DNA of 64,000 nt from an uncultured Candidatus Binatia bacterium (GCA_964291295.2 OZ219754.1:2656001-2720000); one strand, 5' to 3'. Positions 3,593-21,908 are shown, counted from the first letter of the stretch. The notes: generated by a model from the sequence alone, not told the origin. Numbers and translations are program-made.

Positions 3593-5179
3593 TCACCCGC
3601 CTTCCAGATTCAGGTCCTGCCGCATGACGCTCCAGGCGGCCCTGCCGGAGCCGGCCAGGACCGCGTCCGCGGGATGCGTGGCCACACCGACCTGATAGAG
3701 TCCCGCGATGGGTGTCCGGTAATGCGCGAGCTGCGGGATGGGACGGTTCTCGCCCATCTGGTCCGCAGTCTTGCGCGCCACCCACACCGAACCGCGCCGC
3801 ATGTTCTGCCAGCGCCCGGCCAGATAGTGCGGGTCCATGGGCACCTTCATGATGATGTTGTCGTCCGTCAGATTGGTGGCCGCGCCGCGGAGCGCCGCCA
3901 GCACGCGCTCCATGAGATCGCTCCTGAGTGCGCTCCAGGCCTCCGGTCGATGTCCGTCGAGCTGGTACGGGACGGGCATGAACACGGACGCCGTGTGCTT
4001 TGCCGGGGGGGCCTGCAAAGGGTCGAACCAGGTGGGACAGGTGACATGGAGGCAGGGGTGTTCCGGGAACTCGCCGGCCCGGATCTCGCGCCACATCTGC
4101 TTGAGGTCGTCGGTGGAGCAGGGGCCGCAGCTGACGTTCATGGCCTTGCCCACCGCCCCGTCGGCGGCCTCGTGAAGCGCGAACCGCAGCGGCGCCTTGA
4201 GCGCCAGATGGACCTGGAAGCAGGAGAATTCGTCCGGCTCGATGGCGCGCACCGCCTGTGTGAAGGCTTCTTCCAGATGCTCTTCGCCCACCATCTCGAC
4301 GAAGGTGCCGCAAGGGTCGACGTTGGAGACCACCGCCAGCCGGGCCTTCCATTCGCGGCCATCGCGCAGGCGCACGCCGGTGGCGCGTCCGTCCTCCACC
4401 AGGATCTTGTCCACGTGGTGGAGCGCGCGGATCTGGCCGCCGTTCCCGACATAGGCGCGCTGCAGCACTTGGGCGATGGAGTGGGAGCCGCCCCGGGCCA
4501 GCTGCGGCCGCTCGTCCCCGGCCATCAACGCCAGTATCTCCCGCCCGCCGCCCGGGTAGTCGATGGCCCAGCCGCGCGGAATGGCCATCTGCGAGAGCAC
4601 CAGGGTTCGCACCGCCTCGCTGACGAACAGGTGCTCGGCCAGATCGGCCGGGCTCATGCGGGAGAGGCGCAGGAAGTCCGCGCCCTCCGGATGGTTTTCG
4701 ATGCGTGCGTCAAGCGCGCCCCCAGCCTCGGGCGGCGCGTAACAGGAAGGTATGACGATGTCCCGGATGATATCCCGGAAGCGCCGGTGGGCGTCCTTCC
4801 AGACCGCGGCGTCGCCGGTGGAGTGGCGCGCCACGGAGGCCGCCGTTTCGGCGATCTCCTGATGGTGCGAGACCGAGGCGCCGTCGGGCAGCAGCAGCGA
4901 ACTGATGACCGGGGGGGTGACGAACTCGGCGTGGTGGCCGTTTTCCCAGTCGAGCTCTTCCCAGACCGGGGAGATCGCGCGGTTGTCCTGGAAGTAGGCC
5001 AGACTGTTGTGCCAGTAGCCGGGGAGGGTGATCTCCTCGGAGAAGAGCCGCCCGCCGTTTTCCAGCCGGCTTTCGCAGATGACGGTCTCAAGCCCCGCCA
5101 TGCCCAGATAGGTGCCCAGCGCGAAATTGTTCTGCCCCGCGCCAATGAGAATGACGTCCCAGTCCTGGTCCACGGCCAT
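3593..5179 (-). CDS. Second COG1233 FAD-dependent oxidoreductase with degenerate motifs
   Basis: IGAGQNN, DPLQAPPAKHTA, YRTPIAGLYQVGVATHP; clearly paralogous to the neighbouring gene. Confidence 0.88.
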   Translation of the reverse strand: MAVDQDWDVILIGAGQNNFALGTYLGMAGLETVICESRLENGGRLFSEEITLPGYWHNSLAYFQDNRAISPVWEELDWENGHHAEFVTPPVISSLLLPDGASVSHHQEIAETAASVARHSTGDAAVWKDAHRRFRDIIRDIVIPSCYAPPEAGGALDARIENHPEGADFLRLSRMSPADLAEHLFVSEAVRTLVLSQMAIPRGWAIDYPGGGREILALMAGDERPQLARGGSHSIAQVLQRAYVGNGGQIRALHHVDKILVEDGRATGVRLRDGREWKARLAVVSNVDPCGTFVEMVGEEHLEEAFTQAVRAIEPDEFSCFQVHLALKAPLRFALHEAADGAVGKAMNVSCGPCSTDDLKQMWREIRAGEFPEHPCLHVTCPTWFDPLQAPPAKHTASVFMPVPYQLDGHRPEAWSALRSDLMERVLAALRGAATNLTDDNIIMKVPMDPHYLAGRWQNMRRGSVWVARKTADQMGENRPIPQLAHYRTPIAGLYQVGVATHPADAVLAGSGRAAWSVMRQDLNLEGG

Positions 5180-5215
5180 GGATGATATCCCTTCGAATGT
5201 ATTGGCGGCGCCGGT

Positions 5216-6079
5216 TCAGCCCAGTCTGGCAGCGGCCTGTTCGACGGCACGCCGCACGAACACGGCCACGAGGTCGCGCTTGTAGTCGGACGACCCGCGT
5301 ACGTCCTCGATGGGGTCGGCCGCGGCCGCGGCCGCGGCGCCCGCCTCCTCCAACCGTTCCGGTGTGAGATCCCGGCCGCGCAGGAGATCCTCGGCGGTGC
5401 GGGCGCGGAAGATGGTCGGACTCACGGAGTTCAGGGCGATGCGCACATCGTCGCATCGATGCCTCTCGCCGGTCATGGTCACGGCCACCCCCACGGTGGC
5501 GAAGTCCTCCTCGCTGCGCGGCGTGAACTTGATGTGGGACCACGCCGGTCCGGCCGGAGGTGGCACCCGGACCGAGGTGAGAACCTCGTCGGGTTCCAGC
5601 GCGGTCTCGTAGTAGTCCACAAAGAAGTCCTCGACGGACAGGGTGCGCTCGCCGCGGCTGCTGCGCAGGGTCACCTCCGCATCCAGAGCCATGAAGCTGG
5701 CGCCGGGGTCGGTCAACGGATCGCCGTGGGCAAGGTTGCCGCCCACGGTGGCCATCAGCCGAATGCGCGGTTGCGCCACCTTGCGAAAGGTCTCCCGAAG
5801 CAAGGGGTAGTGTTCCCGCACCTCGGGACACAACTCCAGATCCCGGTGTTTCACGCCCGCGCCGATGCGCAATCCGCCGGCGGGATCGCGGGCGATGCCG
5901 TCGAGGCCCGGGACGCGCTCGAGATCGACGACCACCTTGGGGCTCAGGAGACCCATGCGCAACCACATCACCAGAGCGGTGCCGCCCGCCAGGAGCTTGG
6001 CGTCGCCGGCGTGTTCCTGAATCAGTCCGCAGGCCTCGTCGAGGCTCGTCGGTACAAGATATTCGAACTTGGCCCGCAT
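5216..6079 (-). CDS. Xanthine dehydrogenase/CoxM-family FAD-binding subunit
   Basis: LAGGTAL, RLMATVGGNLA, ADPIEDVRGSSDYK. Confidence 0.93.
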   Translation of the reverse strand: MRAKFEYLVPTSLDEACGLIQEHAGDAKLLAGGTALVMWLRMGLLSPKVVVDLERVPGLDGIARDPAGGLRIGAGVKHRDLELCPEVREHYPLLRETFRKVAQPRIRLMATVGGNLAHGDPLTDPGASFMALDAEVTLRSSRGERTLSVEDFFVDYYETALEPDEVLTSVRVPPPAGPAWSHIKFTPRSEEDFATVGVAVTMTGERHRCDDVRIALNSVSPTIFRARTAEDLLRGRDLTPERLEEAGAAAAAAADPIEDVRGSSDYKRDLVAVFVRRAVEQAAARLG

Positions 6080-10775: not shown

Positions 10776-12191
<1,416 letters not shown>

Positions 12192-13574: not shown

Positions 13575-14012
13575 ATGGCGGTTCGCGTGGTGGCGGGGAT
13601 CCTGTCCAGGAACGGCCGGTTCCTCGTCGGCCAGCGCCGCGGCGGCGGCGCATTTCCGTACAAGTGGGAGTTCCCCGGTGGCAAGGTCGAGCCCGGCGAG
13701 GGCCGCGGTGGAGCGCTGGCCAGGGAGTTCCTGGAGGAGTTGGACATCTCGGTGAAGACGGCCCGGGAGGTTTTCCGGCACGTACACGTCTATGCCGGCG
13801 GAAACCGGGTGGAGTTGACATTCTTCGAGGTGACGGCCTGCGCGGGTGAGCCGCGGAACCGGGTCTTCCGGCGCATCGCGTGGGTGGAGGCGGAAGCGCT
13901 CGCGGAACTCGATTTTCTCGAAGGCGATCTGCCGCTGGTCCGGGAGCTTCGGAACGGCGGTCTGGAGGGGCTGCCCGAACGGTTGCGGCGACGGAAGGGA
14001 GTGTCGACATGA
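13575..14012 (+). CDS. NUDIX hydrolase, MutT-like
   Basis: WEFPGGKVEPGE...AREFLEELDI Nudix box; start MAVRVVAGIL. Confidence 0.92.
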   Translation: MAVRVVAGILSRNGRFLVGQRRGGGAFPYKWEFPGGKVEPGEGRGGALAREFLEELDISVKTAREVFRHVHVYAGGNRVELTFFEVTACAGEPRNRVFRRIAWVEAEALAELDFLEGDLPLVRELRNGGLEGLPERLRRRKGVST

Positions 14013-15097
14013 TCCTGGTACTGCGTCCGGAAGACATCGACGGGTTGATCACCATGAAGGAGGCCATCGGGCTGGTTCGGGACGGTTTCGCCCAGTGGCA
14101 GCGGAACCCCGATGTCAGCGTGGTGCGGCACCGCACCCACATGCCCTCCAACGTGCGCGTCAGCGTGCACCAGGGCGGGCTGCCGCAGGTCGGCGTCACC
14201 GGTCTCATGACCCATTGCGAGTGGACCACGAATCCGGTTCACGGAGAGCATTCCATCGAGGCCTTTCCGGTGCGCGGGCGGCCGACCCAGGTGCTGTTCG
14301 ACGCCGAGACCGGCGAGTTGCGCTGCATTGTCATCGGCGAGCCGAAACCCCGGGAGCTGTCCCTGAGCGGCGTGTCCGCATTGCGCACGGCGGCCAACAG
14401 CGCGGTGGGCACGGACGTGATGGCCCGGGCCGACGCCACCACGGTGGGCATGCTGGGGTCGCGGAACCAGGCCAGGTACCATCTGCTCGCACTCAAGGAG
14501 ATTCGCGATCTGACCCGCGTCAAGGTCTTCAGCCCGAATCCGGCGCACCGGAAGGAGTTCGCCGACGAGATGGGCGACCTGACCGGGCTGGACATCCGTC
14601 CGGCGGACAGCGCCAGGGAGGCGGTTCACGGCGCCGACATCGTGGTGGCCGCCACCAGTTCGAATATTCCGGTGCTGGACGGCAACTGGCTGGAACCCGG
14701 CGTTCACCTGACCTCCATCGTGGTGAGCAACATCGGCCTCAAGCGCGGCGGCTTCGTCCCGAAGATGCGCCAGGAACTGGACGACGAGAGCATGCGGCGG
14801 GCCGATGTCATCGGCGTCAACTCCCGCGAGACGCTGCGGGTGGACCAGCCCGGGGACTTCATGGAACGGCTGGAGAACGGCATCCTGTCCTGGGACCGGA
14901 TCGTCGAGGTGGGCGAGATCCTGAACGGTACCCGAGCGGGGCGCACGGACGCGAACCAGATCACGCTTTTCAAGAATACCGGCGGCGTGGGAGTATCCGA
15001 CGTGGCCATCGGCGGCAGGCTTTATGAACTGGCCCGTGAGAAGGGATTGGGCATCGAACTGCCCATCGACGGCGCTGAAGCGCGAGAGCCGCTGTAG
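14009..15097 (+). CDS. Ornithine cyclodeaminase/mu-crystallin family protein (paralog 1)
   Basis: LRTAANSAVG, GSRNQA, ADIVVAATSS, ITLFKNTGG..DVA; ATGA overlap with the NUDIX stop. Confidence 0.9.
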   Translation: MILVLRPEDIDGLITMKEAIGLVRDGFAQWQRNPDVSVVRHRTHMPSNVRVSVHQGGLPQVGVTGLMTHCEWTTNPVHGEHSIEAFPVRGRPTQVLFDAETGELRCIVIGEPKPRELSLSGVSALRTAANSAVGTDVMARADATTVGMLGSRNQARYHLLALKEIRDLTRVKVFSPNPAHRKEFADEMGDLTGLDIRPADSAREAVHGADIVVAATSSNIPVLDGNWLEPGVHLTSIVVSNIGLKRGGFVPKMRQELDDESMRRADVIGVNSRETLRVDQPGDFMERLENGILSWDRIVEVGEILNGTRAGRTDANQITLFKNTGGVGVSDVAIGGRLYELAREKGLGIELPIDGAEAREPL

Positions 15098-15121
15098 GCG
15101 GCGCGGCAGGAGCAGGTTGCC

Positions 15122-16225
15122 ATGACCCTTATCCTGAACAACGACGACGTCCGGCAGGTACTGACCATGGAGACCACCATGGCCGCCCTGGAGAAGGCGT
15201 ATGTCGAGTTGGTGGAACAGGAAGCCGTGTGCCGGCCGCGTATCGACCTGCAGGTGCCGACTCCGGATCCGGAGAAGGTGTATCAGTGGGGCACCATGGA
15301 GGGAGGCTCCACCTCCGGGTATTTCGCCATTCGCATGAAGTCGGACGTGATCTACGAGCAGGAATACGGCGGCGCCGTCACCCAGGAGAAGTACTGTGTG
15401 CGGCCGGGGCGCTTCTGCGGTCTGATCCTGCTCACCAGCATCCACAACGGCGAGCCGCTGGCGCTGCTGAACGACGGCCATCTCCAGCACATGCGGGTCG
15501 GTGCCGACTCCGGCCTGGGCGTCAAGTACATGGCCAGGGAGGACGCCGAAGTGGTGGGCATGATCGGCTCGGGCGGCATGGCCCGCTCGCACATGGAAGC
15601 GTTCATGCAGGTGCGGCGCATCCGACGGGTCCAGGTGTACAGCCCCACCCGGGCGAACCGCGAGCAGTACGCCAGGGAGATGACCGAACGGTTCGACGTG
15701 GAGGCGGTGCCGCTGAGCGATCCCGGCGCCGTCTACCGGGGAGCCGACATCGTCGCGGGCTGCACCGATTCCGCCGTGGACATCATCGCGGGAGCCAGGG
15801 TGGAGGCGGGTACGCATATCACCTCCATCGGCGGCCGTCCGGATGCCGAAACCTTCGAGCGTATCGACGTCTCCCTGCGGTTGGGCACGGCGCCCGCGCC
15901 CTGGGGGCTTGAGGAGTTCGGCCTGCCGGACGAGTACATCACCTACGCGGCCCGGCCGGAGGACGACGCCGGCTTCAGGATGAAGCGCAAGCGCCGCCGC
16001 GCCCACGGCGTGCAGGGCGGAGACGGCAACGTCATGTTGGCGGAGCTGCTTTCGGGCGCGCGCCCGGGCAGGACGTCGGCCGCGCAGATCACCTATTCGG
16101 AGCGGGGCAACGTGCAGGGCGCCCAGTTCTATTCGGTGGCCGGCAAGGTCTACGAGTTGGCCAGGGAGCGGGGCCTGGGCAAGGAGATTCCCACGGAATG
16201 GCTGCTCCAGGACATACGGGACTGA
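15122..16225 (+). CDS. Ornithine cyclodeaminase/mu-crystallin family protein (paralog 2)
   Basis: MRVGADSGLG, IGSGGMARSH, YSPTRANRE, GRTSAAQIT. Confidence 0.9.
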   Translation: MTLILNNDDVRQVLTMETTMAALEKAYVELVEQEAVCRPRIDLQVPTPDPEKVYQWGTMEGGSTSGYFAIRMKSDVIYEQEYGGAVTQEKYCVRPGRFCGLILLTSIHNGEPLALLNDGHLQHMRVGADSGLGVKYMAREDAEVVGMIGSGGMARSHMEAFMQVRRIRRVQVYSPTRANREQYAREMTERFDVEAVPLSDPGAVYRGADIVAGCTDSAVDIIAGARVEAGTHITSIGGRPDAETFERIDVSLRLGTAPAPWGLEEFGLPDEYITYAARPEDDAGFRMKRKRRRAHGVQGGDGNVMLAELLSGARPGRTSAAQITYSERGNVQGAQFYSVAGKVYELARERGLGKEIPTEWLLQDIRD

Positions 16226-16396
16226 CCGAGGCGTTCCGAATACGAAAACGCCCCGGCACGAATCGGGCCGTTTCGCTCCGCCTGAACTTCGCCGGGGATC
16301 ATTGCCGCGCAGGGCCGGTGTCAGCCGGTTCGGGGGTACCCGGCCCATCGCTCGCGGGCCGGCCACGGGAAGCACGGGCCGGCAGGGAGCCCTGTC

Positions 16397-17497
16397 ATGC
16401 TGATTCTGAACAATGACGAGATCGAGACGCTGCTTTCCATGGATTCGTGCATCGAGGTGTTGCACAAGGCCTATTGTCAGCTTGCCGGCGGCGAGGCCGT
16501 GAACCGCCCGCGCACCGATCTCTACCTGCCCTTTCCCGAAACTTCGGGAGTGTACGCCTTCAAGTCCATGGAGGCAGGCCTCTTCGATCCCAGGGTGGTG
16601 GCCCTGCGCCTCAACTCCGACGTGATCCGGTGGGAGGACCGCGGCGGCCGCATCGTCAAGGAAAAGCTTCCCAAGGCTCCCGGGAACAAGTGGGTGGGAC
16701 TGGTGCTGCTGTTCTCCGCCGAGACCGGAGAGCCCCTGGCGATCTTTCCGGACGGCGTGATCCAGGCCTTTCGCGTGGCCGCCTCCAGCGCGCTGGCAGC
16801 CAGGCACATGGCGCGTCAGGATGTGACGCATCTCGGCATCTTCGGCTCGGGCTGGCAGGCTCGCGCCCATGTGGAGGCCTTTTGCAAGGTGCGCCGTTTC
16901 GAGAAGGTGGTGGTGTTCAGTCCCACCCGGGCAAATCGCGAGGCCTTCGCCCGGGAGATGGCGCCGCGGGTGGAGCTCCCCGTGGTACCGTGTGCGGAGG
17001 CTGCGCAGGTGGCGGCGCAGTGCCAGGTGCTGGTGGCCGCCACCAACGCCATCACGCGCGTGATCCCGCCGGAGTGGGTGAGGCCGGGGGTGCACGTCAC
17101 TTGCGTCAAGACCTCCGAGCTCGGCGATGAGACCATCGTGCGGGCCGACCGGGTGGTGATCCATGCACGCAAGATCGCACCGGAGAACTACATCGCCGGC
17201 ATGGGGGACGAGAAGGTGGAGGCCCACGATCCCATTCACTTCCTCACCACCACGGACAGGCAGGCGGCGGCGCGGCCCGAGCCCCCGCCCTGGATAGACG
17301 CTCCCGAGTTGAAGGATGTGGTGGCGGGGAAGCGGCCCGGCCGGACCCGGCCGGACGAGTCCACCTGTTTCGTCAACAACATCGGGCTCGGAATCCAGTT
17401 CGCAGCCGTTGGCAGCGCCGTCCATGAGGACGCGAAAGCCAAGGGGCTGGGGCGGGAGATCCCGACCGAATGGTTCCTGGAGTCGGTTCACCCGTAG
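16397..17497 (+). CDS. Ornithine cyclodeaminase/mu-crystallin family protein (paralog 3)
   Basis: FRVAASSALA, FGSGWQARAH, GLGIQFAAVG. Confidence 0.9.
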   Translation: MLILNNDEIETLLSMDSCIEVLHKAYCQLAGGEAVNRPRTDLYLPFPETSGVYAFKSMEAGLFDPRVVALRLNSDVIRWEDRGGRIVKEKLPKAPGNKWVGLVLLFSAETGEPLAIFPDGVIQAFRVAASSALAARHMARQDVTHLGIFGSGWQARAHVEAFCKVRRFEKVVVFSPTRANREAFAREMAPRVELPVVPCAEAAQVAAQCQVLVAATNAITRVIPPEWVRPGVHVTCVKTSELGDETIVRADRVVIHARKIAPENYIAGMGDEKVEAHDPIHFLTTTDRQAAARPEPPPWIDAPELKDVVAGKRPGRTRPDESTCFVNNIGLGIQFAAVGSAVHEDAKAKGLGREIPTEWFLESVHP

Positions 17498-17570: not shown

Positions 17571-18458
17571 CTACCGGCCGCTTCGTTCCCAGCGGCCGGT
17601 CATGTCCGTCACCGAGACCTGACGCCGGCCCTTGCGTACCTGATAGAGCATGCGGCCGGTGACTTCGAGACAACTCAGGGCGTTGCCGTAAACCAGTCCC
17701 GTATCCAGGCCGATCTTGTAGGGAAGATCGAAGAAGACTTCCTTCATGGGAGTGTGACCAAACAGGACGGTCTGGGGCAGGGTGTGCCGGTTGGCGATGA
17801 ACTCGTGCCGGATCCAGATGAGTTCCTCGCCGGTCTGTTCGTCCCAGGAGCGTGCCGGGTTGATACCCGCATGCAGGCACAGAAAGTCGTCAACGAAGTA
17901 CCAGAGGTCCAGCCCCATGTAGAACGCGACATGCTCGGGGGGCAGCGCCGCCAGGAGTCGCTGCCCGTCCCCGGCTCCCGGCGACGACCTCGCCGGGGCG
18001 GCGACGCCATAGCTCGCCAGCGTCGCAAGGCCTCCGTTCATCAGGAACGCGTCGCCGTGATTTCCCGAAAGGCCCATGTAGGAGAGCATCATGTCTTCGT
18101 GGTTGCCTCTCAGGAAGACGGTCTTCTGTTCGCCCCGCCCGCGCCAGCGGATGACGTAGTCGATGACGCCCTTGGACTCGGGCCCCCGGTCGATGTAGTC
18201 GCCGAGGAACACAACGGTGTCGCCCGGTTCCAGCGGCAGCGACTCGCTCAGCGCGGCCAACTCGGACAGACATCCGTGGACGTCGCCGATCACGTAGCAT
18301 TTCATCGTGTGCTTGACCCTCGACGCCAGCCGGGTGAAGGCCAGTGTGGTGCGGCGAGGCGGCTTGCGGCTCGTGGGCCTTGCCTTTTCGGCGTCATCGG
18401 GATCATCCGCCATGATGGAGCCGCCGGGATCGGGAAACCGACAGGGGAGGACACTCAC
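17571..18458 (-). CDS. PPP-family Ser/Thr protein phosphatase (metallophosphoesterase)
   Basis: GDVHG, GDYIDRG, RGNHE, HAG, FGHTP, LDTG. The start is uncertain: GTG 18458 overlapping the upstream stop, ATG 18413 or ATG 18305. Confidence 0.93.
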   Translation of the reverse strand: MSVLPCRFPDPGGSIMADDPDDAEKARPTSRKPPRRTTLAFTRLASRVKHTMKCYVIGDVHGCLSELAALSESLPLEPGDTVVFLGDYIDRGPESKGVIDYVIRWRGRGEQKTVFLRGNHEDMMLSYMGLSGNHGDAFLMNGGLATLASYGVAAPARSSPGAGDGQRLLAALPPEHVAFYMGLDLWYFVDDFLCLHAGINPARSWDEQTGEELIWIRHEFIANRHTLPQTVLFGHTPMKEVFFDLPYKIGLDTGLVYGNALSCLEVTGRMLYQVRKGRRQVSVTDMTGRWERSGR

Positions 18459-19522
18459 CTGGATGGTTTCGACTTCTGGTACTTCCGGTAGTCGTATCCC
18501 GTGGCCATGGACAGCAGCAGATCTTCCATGCCGCCATCCTTCTCCCGTCTCAGAATCAGCAGGCGTTCGAAGAAATCGATGAAGGTCTTCTGAATTCGCT
18601 GCCTCTCCCCGTCCTTGCGCAGGTAGAAATCACGCAGGCTGGTGATGGCCGTTCTCAGGGCGGAGAACCGGAGCTCGTTGGGGAAGGAGTCCCACTCGGG
18701 CAGGGACAGGGGGCGCAGCCCCTCGTAGCCCAGGATCAGTTCCTCGAACCGGTCGAGGTGATAGCGGCCCCCGCAATAGCAGATCGCGTTGACTGTCGTG
18801 GCCAGGTCGAAAATGAACTTCCCGCGGCATGCCCGGTCGAGGTTCATGATCCCGACCAGACGCGAGCCCTTGAACTTCATGCTCTCCCAGGAAAGATTGC
18901 CGTGAATGACTCCCTTGGGCAGATTGTTGTCCAGATAGCCCTCGAGATAGTTGACCTCGTCATCCAGGACCCGGATGATGGTCCTGAGGTGCGCCGGCAG
19001 GCTCTTCCGGACCTCCTGATAGAGAGCCGCCACCTTCGGAAAGGACGAGCGGTTCTCGACACCCTTCTTGTAGCCCCTGCCGATGAGGTGGAGGTCGGCG
19101 AGCACGTGGCCCGCAGCTCCTACCTGCCCCAAGGTGAGGTTGCTCACCGGCACCTCGTCGCCGTCGATGTTGCGGCTGGCGGAGATGAACCGGCCGCCGG
19201 CGTGAAGGTAGTGCTGCCCGCCGCGGCTCTTCAGGGGCTGAATGCACTGAAAGCCGTGACGCCTCAGGAACAGAAGAAGGTCGATATCGTGCTTGACTTC
19301 GGCCTCGTTCTTGAGGCGGTCGATGGAAACGATGAACTTGCCTCGCCTGGTCTCCACAACGAAGAACGAATTGGCGGATTCGCGATGGAGTCCGGCGGCA
19401 GAGTAGAACTCGCCCAGTGCGAACTCCTCGGCGATGCTGGCAAGTTCCCGGGCTTTGGGTTGGGAGATCAGGCTGGCGGCAAAGGTTTTTTTCTCGGAAA
19501 GTTTGACGTCCGTGGAAAGCAT
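18455..19522 (-). CDS. Homoserine kinase type II / APH-fold protein with degenerate catalytic motifs (putative pseudokinase)
   Basis: LADLH, LPKGVIHG, AC...DLA, GY..LRPL and ALR resemble ThrB type II. HxDxxxxN reads HGNLSWES and DF reads NL. SD GAGGAG upstream. Confidence 0.8.
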   Translation of the reverse strand: MLSTDVKLSEKKTFAASLISQPKARELASIAEEFALGEFYSAAGLHRESANSFFVVETRRGKFIVSIDRLKNEAEVKHDIDLLLFLRRHGFQCIQPLKSRGGQHYLHAGGRFISASRNIDGDEVPVSNLTLGQVGAAGHVLADLHLIGRGYKKGVENRSSFPKVAALYQEVRKSLPAHLRTIIRVLDDEVNYLEGYLDNNLPKGVIHGNLSWESMKFKGSRLVGIMNLDRACRGKFIFDLATTVNAICYCGGRYHLDRFEELILGYEGLRPLSLPEWDSFPNELRFSALRTAITSLRDFYLRKDGERQRIQKTFIDFFERLLILRREKDGGMEDLLLSMATGYDYRKYQKSKPSR

Positions 19523-19633
19523 GGGACTCCTCTGGTTACTCCAACCGGTTGCTGCCTGTCAACATTTTCGAGCCCGCCGTGAAGGCACATGGAAGGCACA
19601 CAGTCGTATGAGAATACTCGTGAAGAAAACGCA

Positions 19634-19649
19634 AGCAAGATTCGTGCCA
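19634..19649 (-). promoter_or_regulatory. sigma54 (-24/-12) promoter
   Basis: Minus strand reads TGGCACGAATCTTGCT, an exact match to TGGCACG-N4-TTGCW, about 110 nt upstream of the kinase-like ATG. Confidence 0.85.
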
Positions 19650-19897
19650 TCGCCAAAGTGTCGAATATTGCGGCCGTTTCGGCGCGCCTGGTCGACAATA
19701 TCGTCGCCGACATCGGCAGCCATGCAGTATTCCCAATAAATTCAAGGTGGTTATATGGTTCGACCATTGCGTCGACCACAGGGCTCGAAAGGCCCTCGGC
19801 CATGTCGACCACCTTCCCGCGCGTTGAAGTTCCATCTCCGGCACTGTAGGACACTACAGGATCGTGCGGCTGCGACAAAATGTTGAGAGGCGGGACA

Positions 19898-20305
19898 ATG
19901 ATTGAAGACGACGCCGGAGCTGGAGCATCCGAAGAGAATCCGGAGCGGACCGTCGCCGGAGAGCGGTCGGACTTGTACTACCACGGAATCATTCGGTGCC
20001 TTTCGTCCCGGAAGGGCACCGGGGTGGTCTGCACCGCCAGCGGCAGGGATGTGACGTTCTCGTATCAGATGGTACGGATGTCGGGTCCGGTGCGCTCACC
20101 CAAGGGGCTGAGGGCGGGTATGCGGGTGGGCTACGACCTGGGTTGGAGCGGCCACGGCCTCCGGGTCACCAGGATAAGAACCTATCCGCCGGAGGGCGAA
20201 GGGCGCCGGGGGCGTCCCGCGCCCCGGCAACGCGAGATGGCTCCGGCCCCGAAGGACAGCGCGAACCGAGGGAACGCGGACGAAGGGAACCACGAGCCGA
20301 AGTGA
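19898..20305 (+). CDS. Cold-shock/OB-fold-like hypothetical protein
   Basis: YHGIIR...KGTGVV...GRDVTF...LRAGMRVGYDL...LRVTRIR follows the CSD beta-strand pattern; SD GAGG upstream. Confidence 0.6.
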   Translation: MIEDDAGAGASEENPERTVAGERSDLYYHGIIRCLSSRKGTGVVCTASGRDVTFSYQMVRMSGPVRSPKGLRAGMRVGYDLGWSGHGLRVTRIRTYPPEGEGRRGRPAPRQREMAPAPKDSANRGNADEGNHEPK

Positions 20306-20340: not shown

Positions 20341-21162
20341 CTACAAGGGCAGCAGCGTCAAGGCGAGGATCTGGCTGGACAGAAGCTCCCCCACGAACAC
20401 GCCGAGCAGGGCGATGTAGAACAGTCCCGTCGCCGCCATCGTGTTCCTGAACTCGGCGAGCGTCTTCCAGATCATGTACGACAGCACCAACGGCCCGAGT
20501 TGCGCGACCAGGAAGCGGGAGGCCAGCAGCATGGCATGATGGCCGAAGAGCCGCTCCAGCGTCGCTACGGTCTCGCCGGTGCCGAGCAGGTAGAGCAGGA
20601 GGGTCGCCACCATCTGCAGCCCGGTCTGAATGATGAGCATGACGACGAAGAATCGGAACACGCGAAAGAAGGGGTCGAGACTCTGACTGGTTTCAATGAG
20701 ATACCAGTGACCGATCAGCATGCCGACCGTCACCGCCCCCAGCAGCAGCGACGACACGATGAAGCTCACCGGAAGGAACACCGCCTCCACCGGGCCCGGG
20801 TCCGCCGCCGTGAAGCCGAACGAGGCGACCATCAGCCCGGCCAGACCGGTCAGTATCGCCGTGGAAAAGAAACGTGCCCGCAGGAAACCCCGCTCACCCC
20901 AGAGCGATATGAAGTAAAACACGAGGAAGAGCGTAAAAGTTACCAACAAACAAAGCTCCAGCACCTTCGCGAGGCCTTGCCTTTCGGGCAGGAGATCGAC
21001 GTGGCCCCAGACCGCCAGCACGGCGGCCACCACCAGGACGCCGGCCGTGGACTTGTAGAAGCCGCGTTCCAGGTCGTTGAAGGGCGTGACGGCAAGGCCC
21101 ACGAGTCCACCCACGGACAACTGGTAGAGAAACATCACGAAGGCGGTGGCGTAGGGATTCAC
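20341..21162 (-). CDS. Polytopic membrane protein of unknown function (GHWYL motif)
   Basis: About 8 hydrophobic segments; GTG 21162 overlaps the menG stop (GTGA); motifs MLIGHWYL and MAATGLFYIA. Confidence 0.75.
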   Translation of the reverse strand: MNPYATAFVMFLYQLSVGGLVGLAVTPFNDLERGFYKSTAGVLVVAAVLAVWGHVDLLPERQGLAKVLELCLLVTFTLFLVFYFISLWGERGFLRARFFSTAILTGLAGLMVASFGFTAADPGPVEAVFLPVSFIVSSLLLGAVTVGMLIGHWYLIETSQSLDPFFRVFRFFVVMLIIQTGLQMVATLLLYLLGTGETVATLERLFGHHAMLLASRFLVAQLGPLVLSYMIWKTLAEFRNTMAATGLFYIALLGVFVGELLSSQILALTLLPL

Positions 21163-21908
21163 GGGCTCGGGGCTCTTTCCACCGGTTCGGCGCTCGACCG
21201 GGGTTTGTCGGCCACTTGAAGGCAGATGGCGCCCTGGAGGTATCGCACGGTGCGGGTTTCGACAAAACCCGCGGATGCGATGATGTCCGCCACCGCACCG
21301 GGCGGGACAAAGGATCGGACCGAGTCGGAAAGATACCGGTAAGCCGCGGGATCGCCGCTCACCACGCTGCCGACCCAAGGCATGAGTCTTCCGAAATAGA
21401 GCCAGTAGAGGCGCGAAAAGAGGCCTGGAGGCGGAGGAAACATGTCCAGCGCCACCAGCCGCCCGCCGGGTTTGAGGACACGGTAGGACTCGCGGAAGAA
21501 CGACGGCAGGTCGCCGACATTACGCAGGACAAAGGCGCTCATCACCGCATCGAAGGAGCCGTCGCGCACGGGAGCGGACAGGGCGTGCGCCAGCACCCAG
21601 GCGGCCCGCGCCTCGAACCCCGCCCGGGCCGCCCGCTCCCTTGCATGATTCAACATGGGCTGCGAGAAGTCGAGGCCCACCACCCGCGCACCAGGGGCGA
21701 GCGCCCTGCACGCATCCAGGGCAAGCGCGCCGGTGCCCGTCCCCAGATCCAGCACCCGCGCCGGTCGGCCCGCGATGCCCAGGGCGGCGACGGCCTTGCG
21801 GCGCCACCAGGAGTCGAGGCGGAAGCTGATGATCCGGTTGAGCAGGTCGTAACGCCATGCGATCCTGTCGAAGATGTTCCTGACCAGGGTGTCGTGGGGA
21901 ACGGGCAT
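21159..21908 (-). CDS. menG: Demethylmenaquinone/ubiquinone methyltransferase (UbiE/MenG)
   Basis: FDRIAWRYDLLNRIISF..D..WR, VLDLGTGTG, FVLRNV, AYRYLSDSV. Confidence 0.92.
   Translation of the reverse strand: MPVPHDTLVRNIFDRIAWRYDLLNRIISFRLDSWWRRKAVAALGIAGRPARVLDLGTGTGALALDACRALAPGARVVGLDFSQPMLNHARERAARAGFEARAAWVLAHALSAPVRDGSFDAVMSAFVLRNVGDLPSFFRESYRVLKPGGRLVALDMFPPPPGLFSRLYWLYFGRLMPWVGSVVSGDPAAYRYLSDSVRSFVPPGAVADIIASAGFVETRTVRYLQGAICLQVADKPRSSAEPVERAPSP

Follow-up and report, generated by a model that had tools for sequence, protein, structure and literature searches.

INTRODUCTION

Among the described systems closest to the locus reported here are the bacterial spore kinases, the ZraSR two-component system, and the enzymes that stand in for the homoserine kinase ThrB. 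For the spore kinases, Scheeff and colleagues took the repeated loss of catalytic residues as a sign of a major noncatalytic function (PMC2860764). ZraSR is a sigma-54 two-component system that answers envelope stress and controls a periplasmic chaperone gene together with its own operon (PMC4987338). ThrB can be replaced by HomK (BT2402/TIGR02535) or by a shikimate-kinase-like enzyme (PMC13759103, PMC5764234); thrB is missing from 8% of prototrophs, in which other kinases probably substitute for it, and the 2026 GapMind paper cautions against concluding auxotrophy from the absence of thrB (PMC13759103). Here we describe a gene for a homoserine-kinase-like protein, together with its promoter and its neighbors, in a stretch of 64,000 nucleotides (nt) from an uncultured Candidatus Binatia bacterium (GCA_964291295.2 OZ219754.1:2656001-2720000), which is called the window throughout. 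A preliminary description of positions 17571 to 20305 had proposed a signaling module made of a sigma-54 promoter, a homoserine-kinase-like pseudokinase, and a PPP-family phosphatase, divergent from a small cold-shock-like gene. We favor, with moderate confidence, a different interpretation, namely, that the kinase-like protein is a conserved noncatalytic descendant of homoserine kinase which in one genus has been drawn into a small sigma-54 two-component regulon with a periplasmic protease.

The genome from which the window comes (3.7 Mb) was compared with relatives whose records are titled Candidatus Binatia. Eighty related loci with a kinase-like gene were collected, so that with the window 81 sequences were available for the motif columns. 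The window and 24 relatives make up a close clade, in the genus labeled g1 by the tool used; within this clade the kinase-like proteins are 81 to 88% identical to that of the window, and the 56 more distant sequences are 56 to 63% identical to it. The class sample comprised 61 genomes. The phosphatase was judged absent at a threshold of E ≤ 1e-10, HomK was scored as present above the cutoff of TIGR02535, the phylogeny was a quick maximum-likelihood tree, and the alignment of upstream regions (n = 25) had a mean column identity of 47%. Literature searches turned up no Binatia paper on the kinase-like family or its promoter, which does not prove that none exists.

RESULTS

The kinase-like gene and its upstream region contain the following features (positions in the window).

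18455..19522, minus strand: kinase-like gene, 355 amino acids (aa), type II homoserine kinase-derived, with the substituted motifs HGNLSWES and MNLD and the C-terminal tail GGMEDLLLSMATGYDYRKYQKSKPSR kept

19527..19533, minus strand: Shine-Dalgarno-like AGAGGAG, read from the sequence, ending 4 nt before the kinase-like ATG

19634..19649, minus strand: sigma-54 -24/-12 element TGGCACGAATCTTGCT, exact consensus, 127 nt before the kinase-like ATG

19692..19707, minus strand: proximal palindrome GCGACGATATTGTCGA, core CGAC-N6-GTCG, beginning 57 nt upstream of the -24 element; candidate enhancer (upstream activating sequence, UAS)

19760..19775, minus strand: distal palindrome TCGACGCAATGGTCGA, beginning 125 nt upstream of the -24 element and 68 bp from the proximal one; candidate enhancer (UAS)

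As the preliminary description had stated, the frame at 18455-19522 on the minus strand is open over 355 codons and is preceded by a strong Shine-Dalgarno sequence (GAGGAG, 4 nt before the ATG). The encoded protein matches Pfam APH with 47 bits and falls below the equivalog cutoffs of both homoserine kinase models, thrB_alt TIGR00938 (119.6 versus 255.9 bits) and NF003558 (123.8 versus 271). Its best, and only, solved relative by sequence is 2PPQ, the type II homoserine kinase of Agrobacterium (80 bits), which is also the top Foldseek match to the AlphaFold2 (AF2) model (E of 6e-13; template modeling [TM] scores of 0.63/0.71). When the two are aligned, HaDlfqDN and IDF of 2PPQ stand opposite HGNLSWES and MNL, and the window protein is seen to lack both the catalytic loop HxDxxxxN and the Mg-binding Asp of the Dxe/DxD motif.

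These substitutions are shared by the close clade. The catalytic Asp is replaced by Asn in 24 of the 25 sequences, the second catalytic position (Asn) is Ser or Gly in all 25, and 18 carry Asn in place of the Mg-binding Asp; the conserved Lys has become Ser in 24 sequences and Cys in L025, and the glycine-rich loop is altered as well. Outside the clade, all 56 sequences retain Asp/Asn/Asp, GSVNTHY, and the Lys (a few with Arg). Every g1 genome examined, G026 and G058 included, has the close-clade form of the gene. An acidic residue remains two positions past the lost Mg-binding Asp; the motif reads NLD in the window, the only instance in the clade, and NFD or DFD in its clade mates.

The altered gene is nevertheless maintained by strong purifying selection. 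Its median ratio of nonsynonymous to synonymous substitution rates (dN/dS) is 0.072 (268 within-clade pairs) versus 0.154 for the phosphatase gene (272 pairs), on which account we do not consider the protein to be decaying, and its reading frame is unbroken in all 24 g1 relatives. By sequence criteria, following those of PMC2860764, the window protein qualifies as a pseudokinase of the CAK group (fold retained, catalytic motifs lost, selection maintained), and to that extent the designation given in the preliminary description is borne out. Since the catalytic residues are gone and purifying selection is still strong, the protein most likely acts without phosphotransfer; it would instead use its retained C-lobe and tail to bind a ligand or a partner. 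In the quick tree, both clade stems have 100% support and are long (0.74 and 0.57), and the tips are short (median of 0.045). The terminal branch of the window protein, at 0.16, is longer than this clade median.

The family reaches well beyond g1. An orthologue, mostly single-copy and with 37 to 87% identity, is present in 59 of the 61 class genomes; the catalytic motifs are intact in 34 of these 59 and degenerate in 25, the window counted. Degenerate orthologues are spread over 9 of 17 families and carry diverse replacements (HGT, HGE, HGG, HGA, and ILVE; GFK, HFE, and NFG), which suggests that the motifs were lost repeatedly. The C-terminal tail, of about 30 residues with the pattern ..GGMxxxLxxMATGYDYRKYQK.., could be aligned in 57 of the 58 other genomes (the alignment of G002 stopped short), and 56 of the 57 tails fit ATGYDYR[KRQ]YQ[KR]; that of G037 is divergent (ATAYDYRRLHR). 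A search of a representative library of 1.84 billion proteins returned 29 proteins at E ≤ 1e-30. Among the full-length, tail-bearing representatives of 50%-identity clusters that were read, five of six were degenerate, while the next relatives (27 to 33% identity) were tail-less and catalytically intact. A search of the ESM Atlas with the tail yielded only unnamed short clusters. In family f9 (L097, L098, L099, and L103), a biotin carboxylase gene immediately follows the kinase-like gene on the same strand, at distances of about 30 to 90 nt, a conserved setting unlike the one found in the order of the window; in other families of the class the kinase-like gene lies amid unrelated housekeeping genes.

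The exact sigma-54 -24/-12 box of the preliminary description (19634-19649, minus strand) is present and is conserved in g1 along with candidate activator sites. The sigma-54 pattern occurs once in the window against 0.06 matches expected from shuffles, and a stricter pattern has three matches in the whole 3.7-Mb genome. The GG/GC spacing and the orientation to the gene are those of a sigma-54 promoter, the genome encodes rpoN and three true sigma-54 activators, and candidate sites for an activator lie upstream. The transcript start is predicted near 19622-19624, with a leader of about 100 nt; an Rfam scan of the window and four loci found tRNAs only, leaving this leader without a known RNA family. 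In the aligned upstream regions, the GG/GC of the box is invariant in 25 of 25, as are TGGCA and TGC and both CGAC-N6-GTCG palindrome cores. The box was found at 23 of the 24 g1 loci (the 24th has CGGCAC) versus 1 of 54 loci outside g1, and at least two palindromes at 24 of 24 g1 loci, single and unaligned ones occurring at 3 of 54 loci elsewhere. Because box and palindromes are essentially confined to g1, promoter gain and catalytic loss coincide.

Two further sequence elements were recorded. Between the sigma-54 promoter and the ATG, many close relatives have a perfect DnaA-box-like site, TTATCCACA (e.g., L002:3935-3945; alignment columns about 460 to 475), which is lost in the window (CTTCACGGC). 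A sigma-54-like match, TGGCACATCGAATGCT, at 11388-11403 on the plus strand of the window lies inside a coding region reading ..GRPGWHIECSAM.. and was rejected as a chance hit, not a promoter; this coding region is presumably that of a cysteinyl-tRNA synthetase, of which we take the reading to be typical.

None of the three activators is encoded near the kinase-like locus. Assignment by gene proximity was therefore set aside, and the shared palindrome was used instead. It leads to two further loci.

G000:C1:3336892-3342008 (L094): htrA/histidine kinase/activator operon, with a strict palindrome 111 nt upstream of the sigma-54 box TGGCACGGAATGTGCC

G000:C1:313847-314148 (L096:848-1148): third sigma-54 promoter TGGCACGATTGTTGCT with an upstream CGAC-N6-GTCG, preceding a 75-aa open reading frame (ORF) MQSLTLLDVINAVGEYARTPDEMKAVV..

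The operon encodes, in order, an HtrA/DegP-type protease (Trypsin_2 and two PDZ domains), a histidine kinase (sCache_3_2, HisKA, and HATPase), and an activator with receiver, Sigma54_activat, and HTH_8 domains. In each of the 10 g1 genomes compared, a strict palindrome and a sigma-54 box precede htrA, the palindrome lying some 90 to 112 nt upstream of the operon's sigma-54 promoter, and the histidine kinase gene follows htrA (10 of 10). Orthologous kinase-activator pairs outside g1 (52 to 55% and 68 to 70% identity) have a sigma-54 box with a strict palindrome about 100 to 110 nt upstream in four of five loci; in these loci (L129-L133) the first gene encodes a secreted Gly/His/Met-rich protein of 123 to 168 aa, which suggests a metal or envelope signal. 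When the combined pattern (palindrome, 30 to 115 nt, box) was searched in 13 g1 genomes, there were two to four hits per genome and no control hits. The hits fell at the kinase-like gene in 12 of the 13 genomes, at htrA in all 13, and at the locus of the 75-aa ORF in 10. The window's genome has a not quite perfect palindrome at this last locus, which is probably the regulon's third member.

As judged from the shared motif, the regulator acting at the kinase-like gene is most likely the activator of the htrA operon. It would bind the palindromes, autoregulate its operon, and, in g1, drive the pseudokinase gene, whose sigma-54 promoter with two TCGAC-N6-GTCGA-type palindromes would place it under this control; the gene would then be induced alongside a response that maintains protein quality in the periplasm, much as ZraSR operates. 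Beside the third activator (L095), a copy of an ornithine cyclodeaminase/mu-crystallin gene lies in an operon with a major facilitator superfamily (MFS) transporter, with a sigma-54-like box in this genome only.

Downstream of the kinase-like gene lie the phosphatase gene and what is left of a third gene.

17571..18305, minus strand: PPP-family metallophosphatase, 244 aa from the ATG at 18305, all catalytic motifs intact

18306..18454, no strand assigned: remnant of an opposite-strand gene for a small, apparently two-transmembrane protein, 149 nt, with a plus-strand terminator-like hairpin at 18361-18379

The motifs of the phosphatase, said earlier to be all intact, are indeed so: GDxHG, GDxxDRG, GNHE, H145, and GH are invariant in 67 sequences. 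The protein scores 64.9 bits against Pfam Metallophos; its closest solved relatives are RLPH2 (5VJV), the ApaH-type Ap4A hydrolases, and lambda phosphatase, and it stays below every equivalog cutoff (ApaH, 67 versus 176; PrpE, 50 versus 340; PrpA, 49 versus 326). A GTG at 18458 had been offered as a possible start overlapping the stop of the kinase-like gene. The overlap exists, but the start does not hold, as 67 of 67 complete orthologues begin at the equivalent of the ATG at 18305, with M-(K/R/x)-x-Y-V-I-G-D-x-H-G; the GTG would add 51 residues that are not conserved.

In most relatives, the spacer between the two genes is constant in length: 19 of the 24 g1 loci have 391 to 441 nt, and 42 of the 43 distant loci have about 480 to 710 nt, the exception being L026 with 1950 nt. 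Each of the 12 loci examined carries in this spacer, on the opposite strand, a gene for a conserved protein of about 125 to 140 aa with two apparent hydrophobic segments and the motifs ..LGxGNWxVGAVQ.. TGLEDSYRSFQELDQQKNEEVLRRINEDREKYNAARVKLDF (e.g., L045:5047-5448, minus strand, and the L002 spacer, 5066-5500); a Pfam scan of the L045 protein found no family. The window keeps about 130 nt of the 3' end of this gene, including the terminator-like hairpin on the plus strand, and has lost about 290 nt, including its start and the short divergent region before the phosphatase gene. No minus-strand terminator was found between the kinase-like gene and the phosphatase gene in the window. Because the deletion removed both the opposite-strand gene and the upstream region of the phosphatase gene, the latter is probably cotranscribed with the pseudokinase gene here, as a secondary arrangement; the intact phosphatase would have been joined to the kinase-like transcript of this genome by that deletion. 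The spacer gene also has deletions, differing in extent, in L003, L015, L020, and L024.

According to the preliminary description, the pseudokinase could control the phosphatase by binding to it, as a ligand sensor or scaffold, the two forming a dedicated pair expressed from the sigma-54 promoter. We regard this as unlikely. Both proteins are conserved, the phosphatase is catalytically intact, and the genes are neighbors in 68 of the 80 loci of the order and in 7 of the 8 sampled order genomes that have both, but they are adjacent in none of the 41 other genomes of the class with both, and in other families of the class the kinase-like gene has unrelated housekeeping genes around it. In 5 of the 25 g1 sequences (the window, L003, L015, L020, and L024), different deletions have brought them to within 29 to 149 nt of each other, which could reflect selection for coexpression; in most loci, however, the opposite-strand gene separates them, so they do not form one operon there. 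The adjacency is, moreover, older than the catalytic loss, as loci with an intact kinase also show it. Both genes are common in the class (the kinase-like gene in 59 of 61 genomes and the phosphatase gene in 50), and of the 25 genomes in which the kinase-like gene is degenerate, 10 yielded no phosphatase at the threshold given above. Neither gene order nor co-occurrence supports the proposed module. On the other side of the phosphatase gene, three tandem ornithine cyclodeaminase/mu-crystallin genes (13880-17497, plus strand) converge on it.

Upstream, the kinase-like gene faces a divergent neighbor.

19898..20305, plus strand: gene of cold-shock-domain fold, 135 aa, core at residues 28 to 95 with disordered tails; conserved start at ATG 19898 (M-I/V-E-D-D)

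This gene and the kinase-like gene start at 19898 and 19522, respectively, on either side of a shared 375-bp spacer, and the cold-shock likeness noted earlier is confirmed by the predicted fold. A Pfam scan of the ORF found no family at E ≤ 0.01, and the NCBIfam match was weak (retron Se72 effector, 18.5 bits versus a cutoff of 82). In an AF2 model built from 47 sequences, the core at residues 28 to 95 has a predicted local distance difference test (pLDDT) score above 90 and forms a five-stranded oligonucleotide/oligosaccharide-binding (OB) barrel of the cold-shock protein type; the top Foldseek matches were the cold-shock domains of CspE, CspA, CspB, and YB-1 (E of 6e-5, target-normalized TM score of about 0.8, 17 to 19% identity). 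All 24 g1 loci, and most distant ones, have this gene upstream of the kinase-like gene. Because it is kept there with or without a sigma-54 promoter, we take the adjacency as inherited gene order rather than as a sign of shared function. Between the cold-shock-like gene and a ubiE-type methyltransferase gene with a polyprenyl synthase gene lies a 345-aa ORF (20341-21378, minus strand) that resembles a multipass membrane protein and matches no Pfam or NCBIfam family; its position is kept across the order.

DISCUSSION

The interpretation we favor concerns one genus. We propose much more tentatively that the conserved job of the whole family might be noncatalytic, the protein serving as a sensor or adaptor by means of its invariant C-lobe and its MATGYDYRKYQK tail; phosphotransfer would have become dispensable again and again, and the g1 member would have been wired into a sigma-54 two-component regulon with the HtrA protease. 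If true, this would link a former amino acid pathway enzyme to envelope stress and would imply that one-third of the class has a homoserine kinase, or a route to threonine, still to be discovered.

Several points weigh against the interpretation of the g1 protein as a noncatalytic member of such a regulon. The loss of activity is deduced from motifs, and the ancestral homoserine kinase activity would likewise be a deduction, as family members with intact motifs still score only 197 to 214 bits against equivalog cutoffs of 256 to 271. L023, a member of the g1 clade, retains HGD and is nested rather than basal in the quick tree, for which reason a stepwise order of the catalytic losses was dropped. 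The AF2 model of the kinase-like protein has a mean pLDDT of 69.9, with values below 50 in the catalytic loops and the tail; it is silent on the pocket, the tail, and the mode of docking. The activator would be tied to the palindrome by the co-occurrence of motifs, and the strict palindrome TCGAC-N6-GTCGA has 20 copies in the genome and the looser core 229. Finally, a second promoter-like element lies close to the gene.

19557..19562, minus strand: sigma-70-like TTGACA hexamer; relatives have TTGACAA..N..GAGTAATA, and the -10-like part in the window is degenerate (TAACCA)

In 23 of the 25 sequences, TTGACA is followed 17 nt on by TAATAn, 35 to 40 nt before the ATG, and this element could be the main promoter. 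The kinase-like gene would then be expressed chiefly from it, with the sigma-54 box being minor and the palindromes, which do sit between two divergent genes, serving another factor, for example, at the cold-shock-like gene. We hold this to be distinctly unlikely and rank the element second, because a start there would fall a few nucleotides from the ATG and exclude the conserved Shine-Dalgarno sequence. In the window the -10 part is degenerate, and a promoter consensus scan of the strand of the kinase-like gene gave no sigma-70 hit there. Palindrome and sigma-54 box, moreover, recur together ahead of the operon that encodes the activator (14 of 15 loci), and in most distant loci the cold-shock-like gene precedes the kinase-like gene without any palindrome.

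Another reading keeps the protein in its original role as homoserine kinase, now with stress or nitrogen control. The genome encodes homoserine dehydrogenase and several threonine synthase homologues, and a search for another g1 homoserine kinase among GHMP-type ThrB, HomK, an extra shikimate-kinase-like gene, and other APH genes found none: GHMP-type ThrB scored above the cutoff in 0 of 61 class genomes and HomK in 0 of 10 g1 genomes, the shikimate kinase gene of g1 is single with no extra paralogue, and the other two APH-family genes look unrelated. HomK is an unrelated, phosphoglycerate-mutase-like protein that acts at the same metabolic step (PMC13759103). All 15 genomes of the order outside g1 have it, as do 32 of the 61 class genomes; being absent from the g1 genomes searched, it cannot explain homoserine phosphorylation in g1. 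In the sister family f2, thrC (307 to 323 bits) adjoins the HomK gene (G018:C288:891-3121, G034:C52:19974-22204, and G002:C11:14599-16826), and neither the extra thrC type nor HomK was found in g1.

That the g1 protein is nonetheless still the homoserine kinase of the organism seems to us very unlikely. The acidic residue two positions past the lost Mg-binding Asp (NLD/NFD/DFD) and the want of any other recognized enzyme speak for it, but changes affect the catalytic Asp and Asn and the Mg-binding Asp as well as the Lys and the glycine-rich loop, and in the sister family of spore kinases the criterion of a pseudokinase is the absence of the corresponding Asp, which catalysis is believed to need (PMC2860764). 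Nor does an absent ThrB force such a reading (PMC13759103). Elsewhere in the class the situation differs by genome. In ten genomes, the family member is intact and HomK is missing, which fits a homoserine kinase role there, while 19 of 59 genomes, g1 included, have a degenerate member and neither HomK nor GHMP ThrB. Some of these 19 genomes are 5 to 7 Mb in size. An unrecognized homoserine kinase or threonine route may operate in them; we do not take the thrB gap as auxotrophy, because the GapMind paper warns against doing so (PMC13759103). That the gene is decaying after loss of the threonine pathway, as a remnant with no new function, is hardly credible, since the missing catalytic residues and the absence from g1 of HomK and of the thrC-homK pair of f2 (G002, G018, and G034) are set against a dN/dS of 0.072, a frame intact in 24 of 24 relatives at 81 to 88% identity, a newly gained and conserved regulatory region, and a C-terminal tail kept in nearly every orthologue of the class.

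A noncatalytic g1 protein under sigma-54 control would be of interest on several counts. The family would offer a clear bacterial case of a metabolic kinase becoming a pseudoenzyme, in which active and dead orthologues occur in sister lineages and can be compared directly. In g1, the catalytic loss coincides with a complete change of promoter, a sigma-54 element and two activator sites having appeared where there was no sigma-54 signal, which provides a testable hypothesis for the use of the dead form. The survey also exposes a metabolic gap, as about a third of the sampled class genomes have no recognized homoserine kinase, although the window's genome does encode threonine synthase and homoserine dehydrogenase. 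The regulon itself is small and testable (three conserved promoters, one palindrome, and one activator), and our searches turned up no experimental work on the gene family for this lineage.

Compared with known systems, the kinase-like protein shares the fold of the type II homoserine kinases (TIGR00938, NF003558, and 2PPQ) and is clearly homologous to them, its intact relatives keeping HGDxxxDN and DFE; it differs from them in the lost catalytic residues and in the invariant tail of about 30 residues, which is absent from P0136, P0147, P0150, and P0152. With the bacterial spore kinases (BSK/CotS/YtaA), it has in common the CAK group, HSK2 as the closest structure, and the repeated loss of the catalytic Asp, the Asn, and DxD with the fold kept (PMC2860764). 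It belongs, however, to a different family (28 bits with the CotS model versus a cutoff of 173), has no spore context, and is mostly single-copy and near-universal in its class, and the available part of the spore kinase paper describes neither a C-terminal tail nor sigma-54 control for that group (PMC2860764). The phosphatase has the same PPP motifs as ApaH, PrpE, PrpA/B, lambda phosphatase, and Rhizobiales-like phosphatase 2, with a 65-bit Metallophos match, while staying below all cutoffs of the named equivalogs (ApaH, PrpE, and PrpA/B). The proposed regulon differs from that of ZraR in that it would include a cytoplasmic pseudokinase, which is not listed in the available part of the ZraSR account (PMC4987338), and from ZraSR in that its sensor has an sCache_3_2 domain. 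The quality-control gene here codes for an HtrA-type protease in g1 and for a Gly/His/Met-rich secreted protein outside it, where the ZraSR counterpart is a periplasmic chaperone (PMC4987338). By analogy, the two would otherwise be built alike, from a sensor kinase and an NtrC-family regulator acting at the sigma-54 promoters of their own operon and of a periplasmic quality-control gene.

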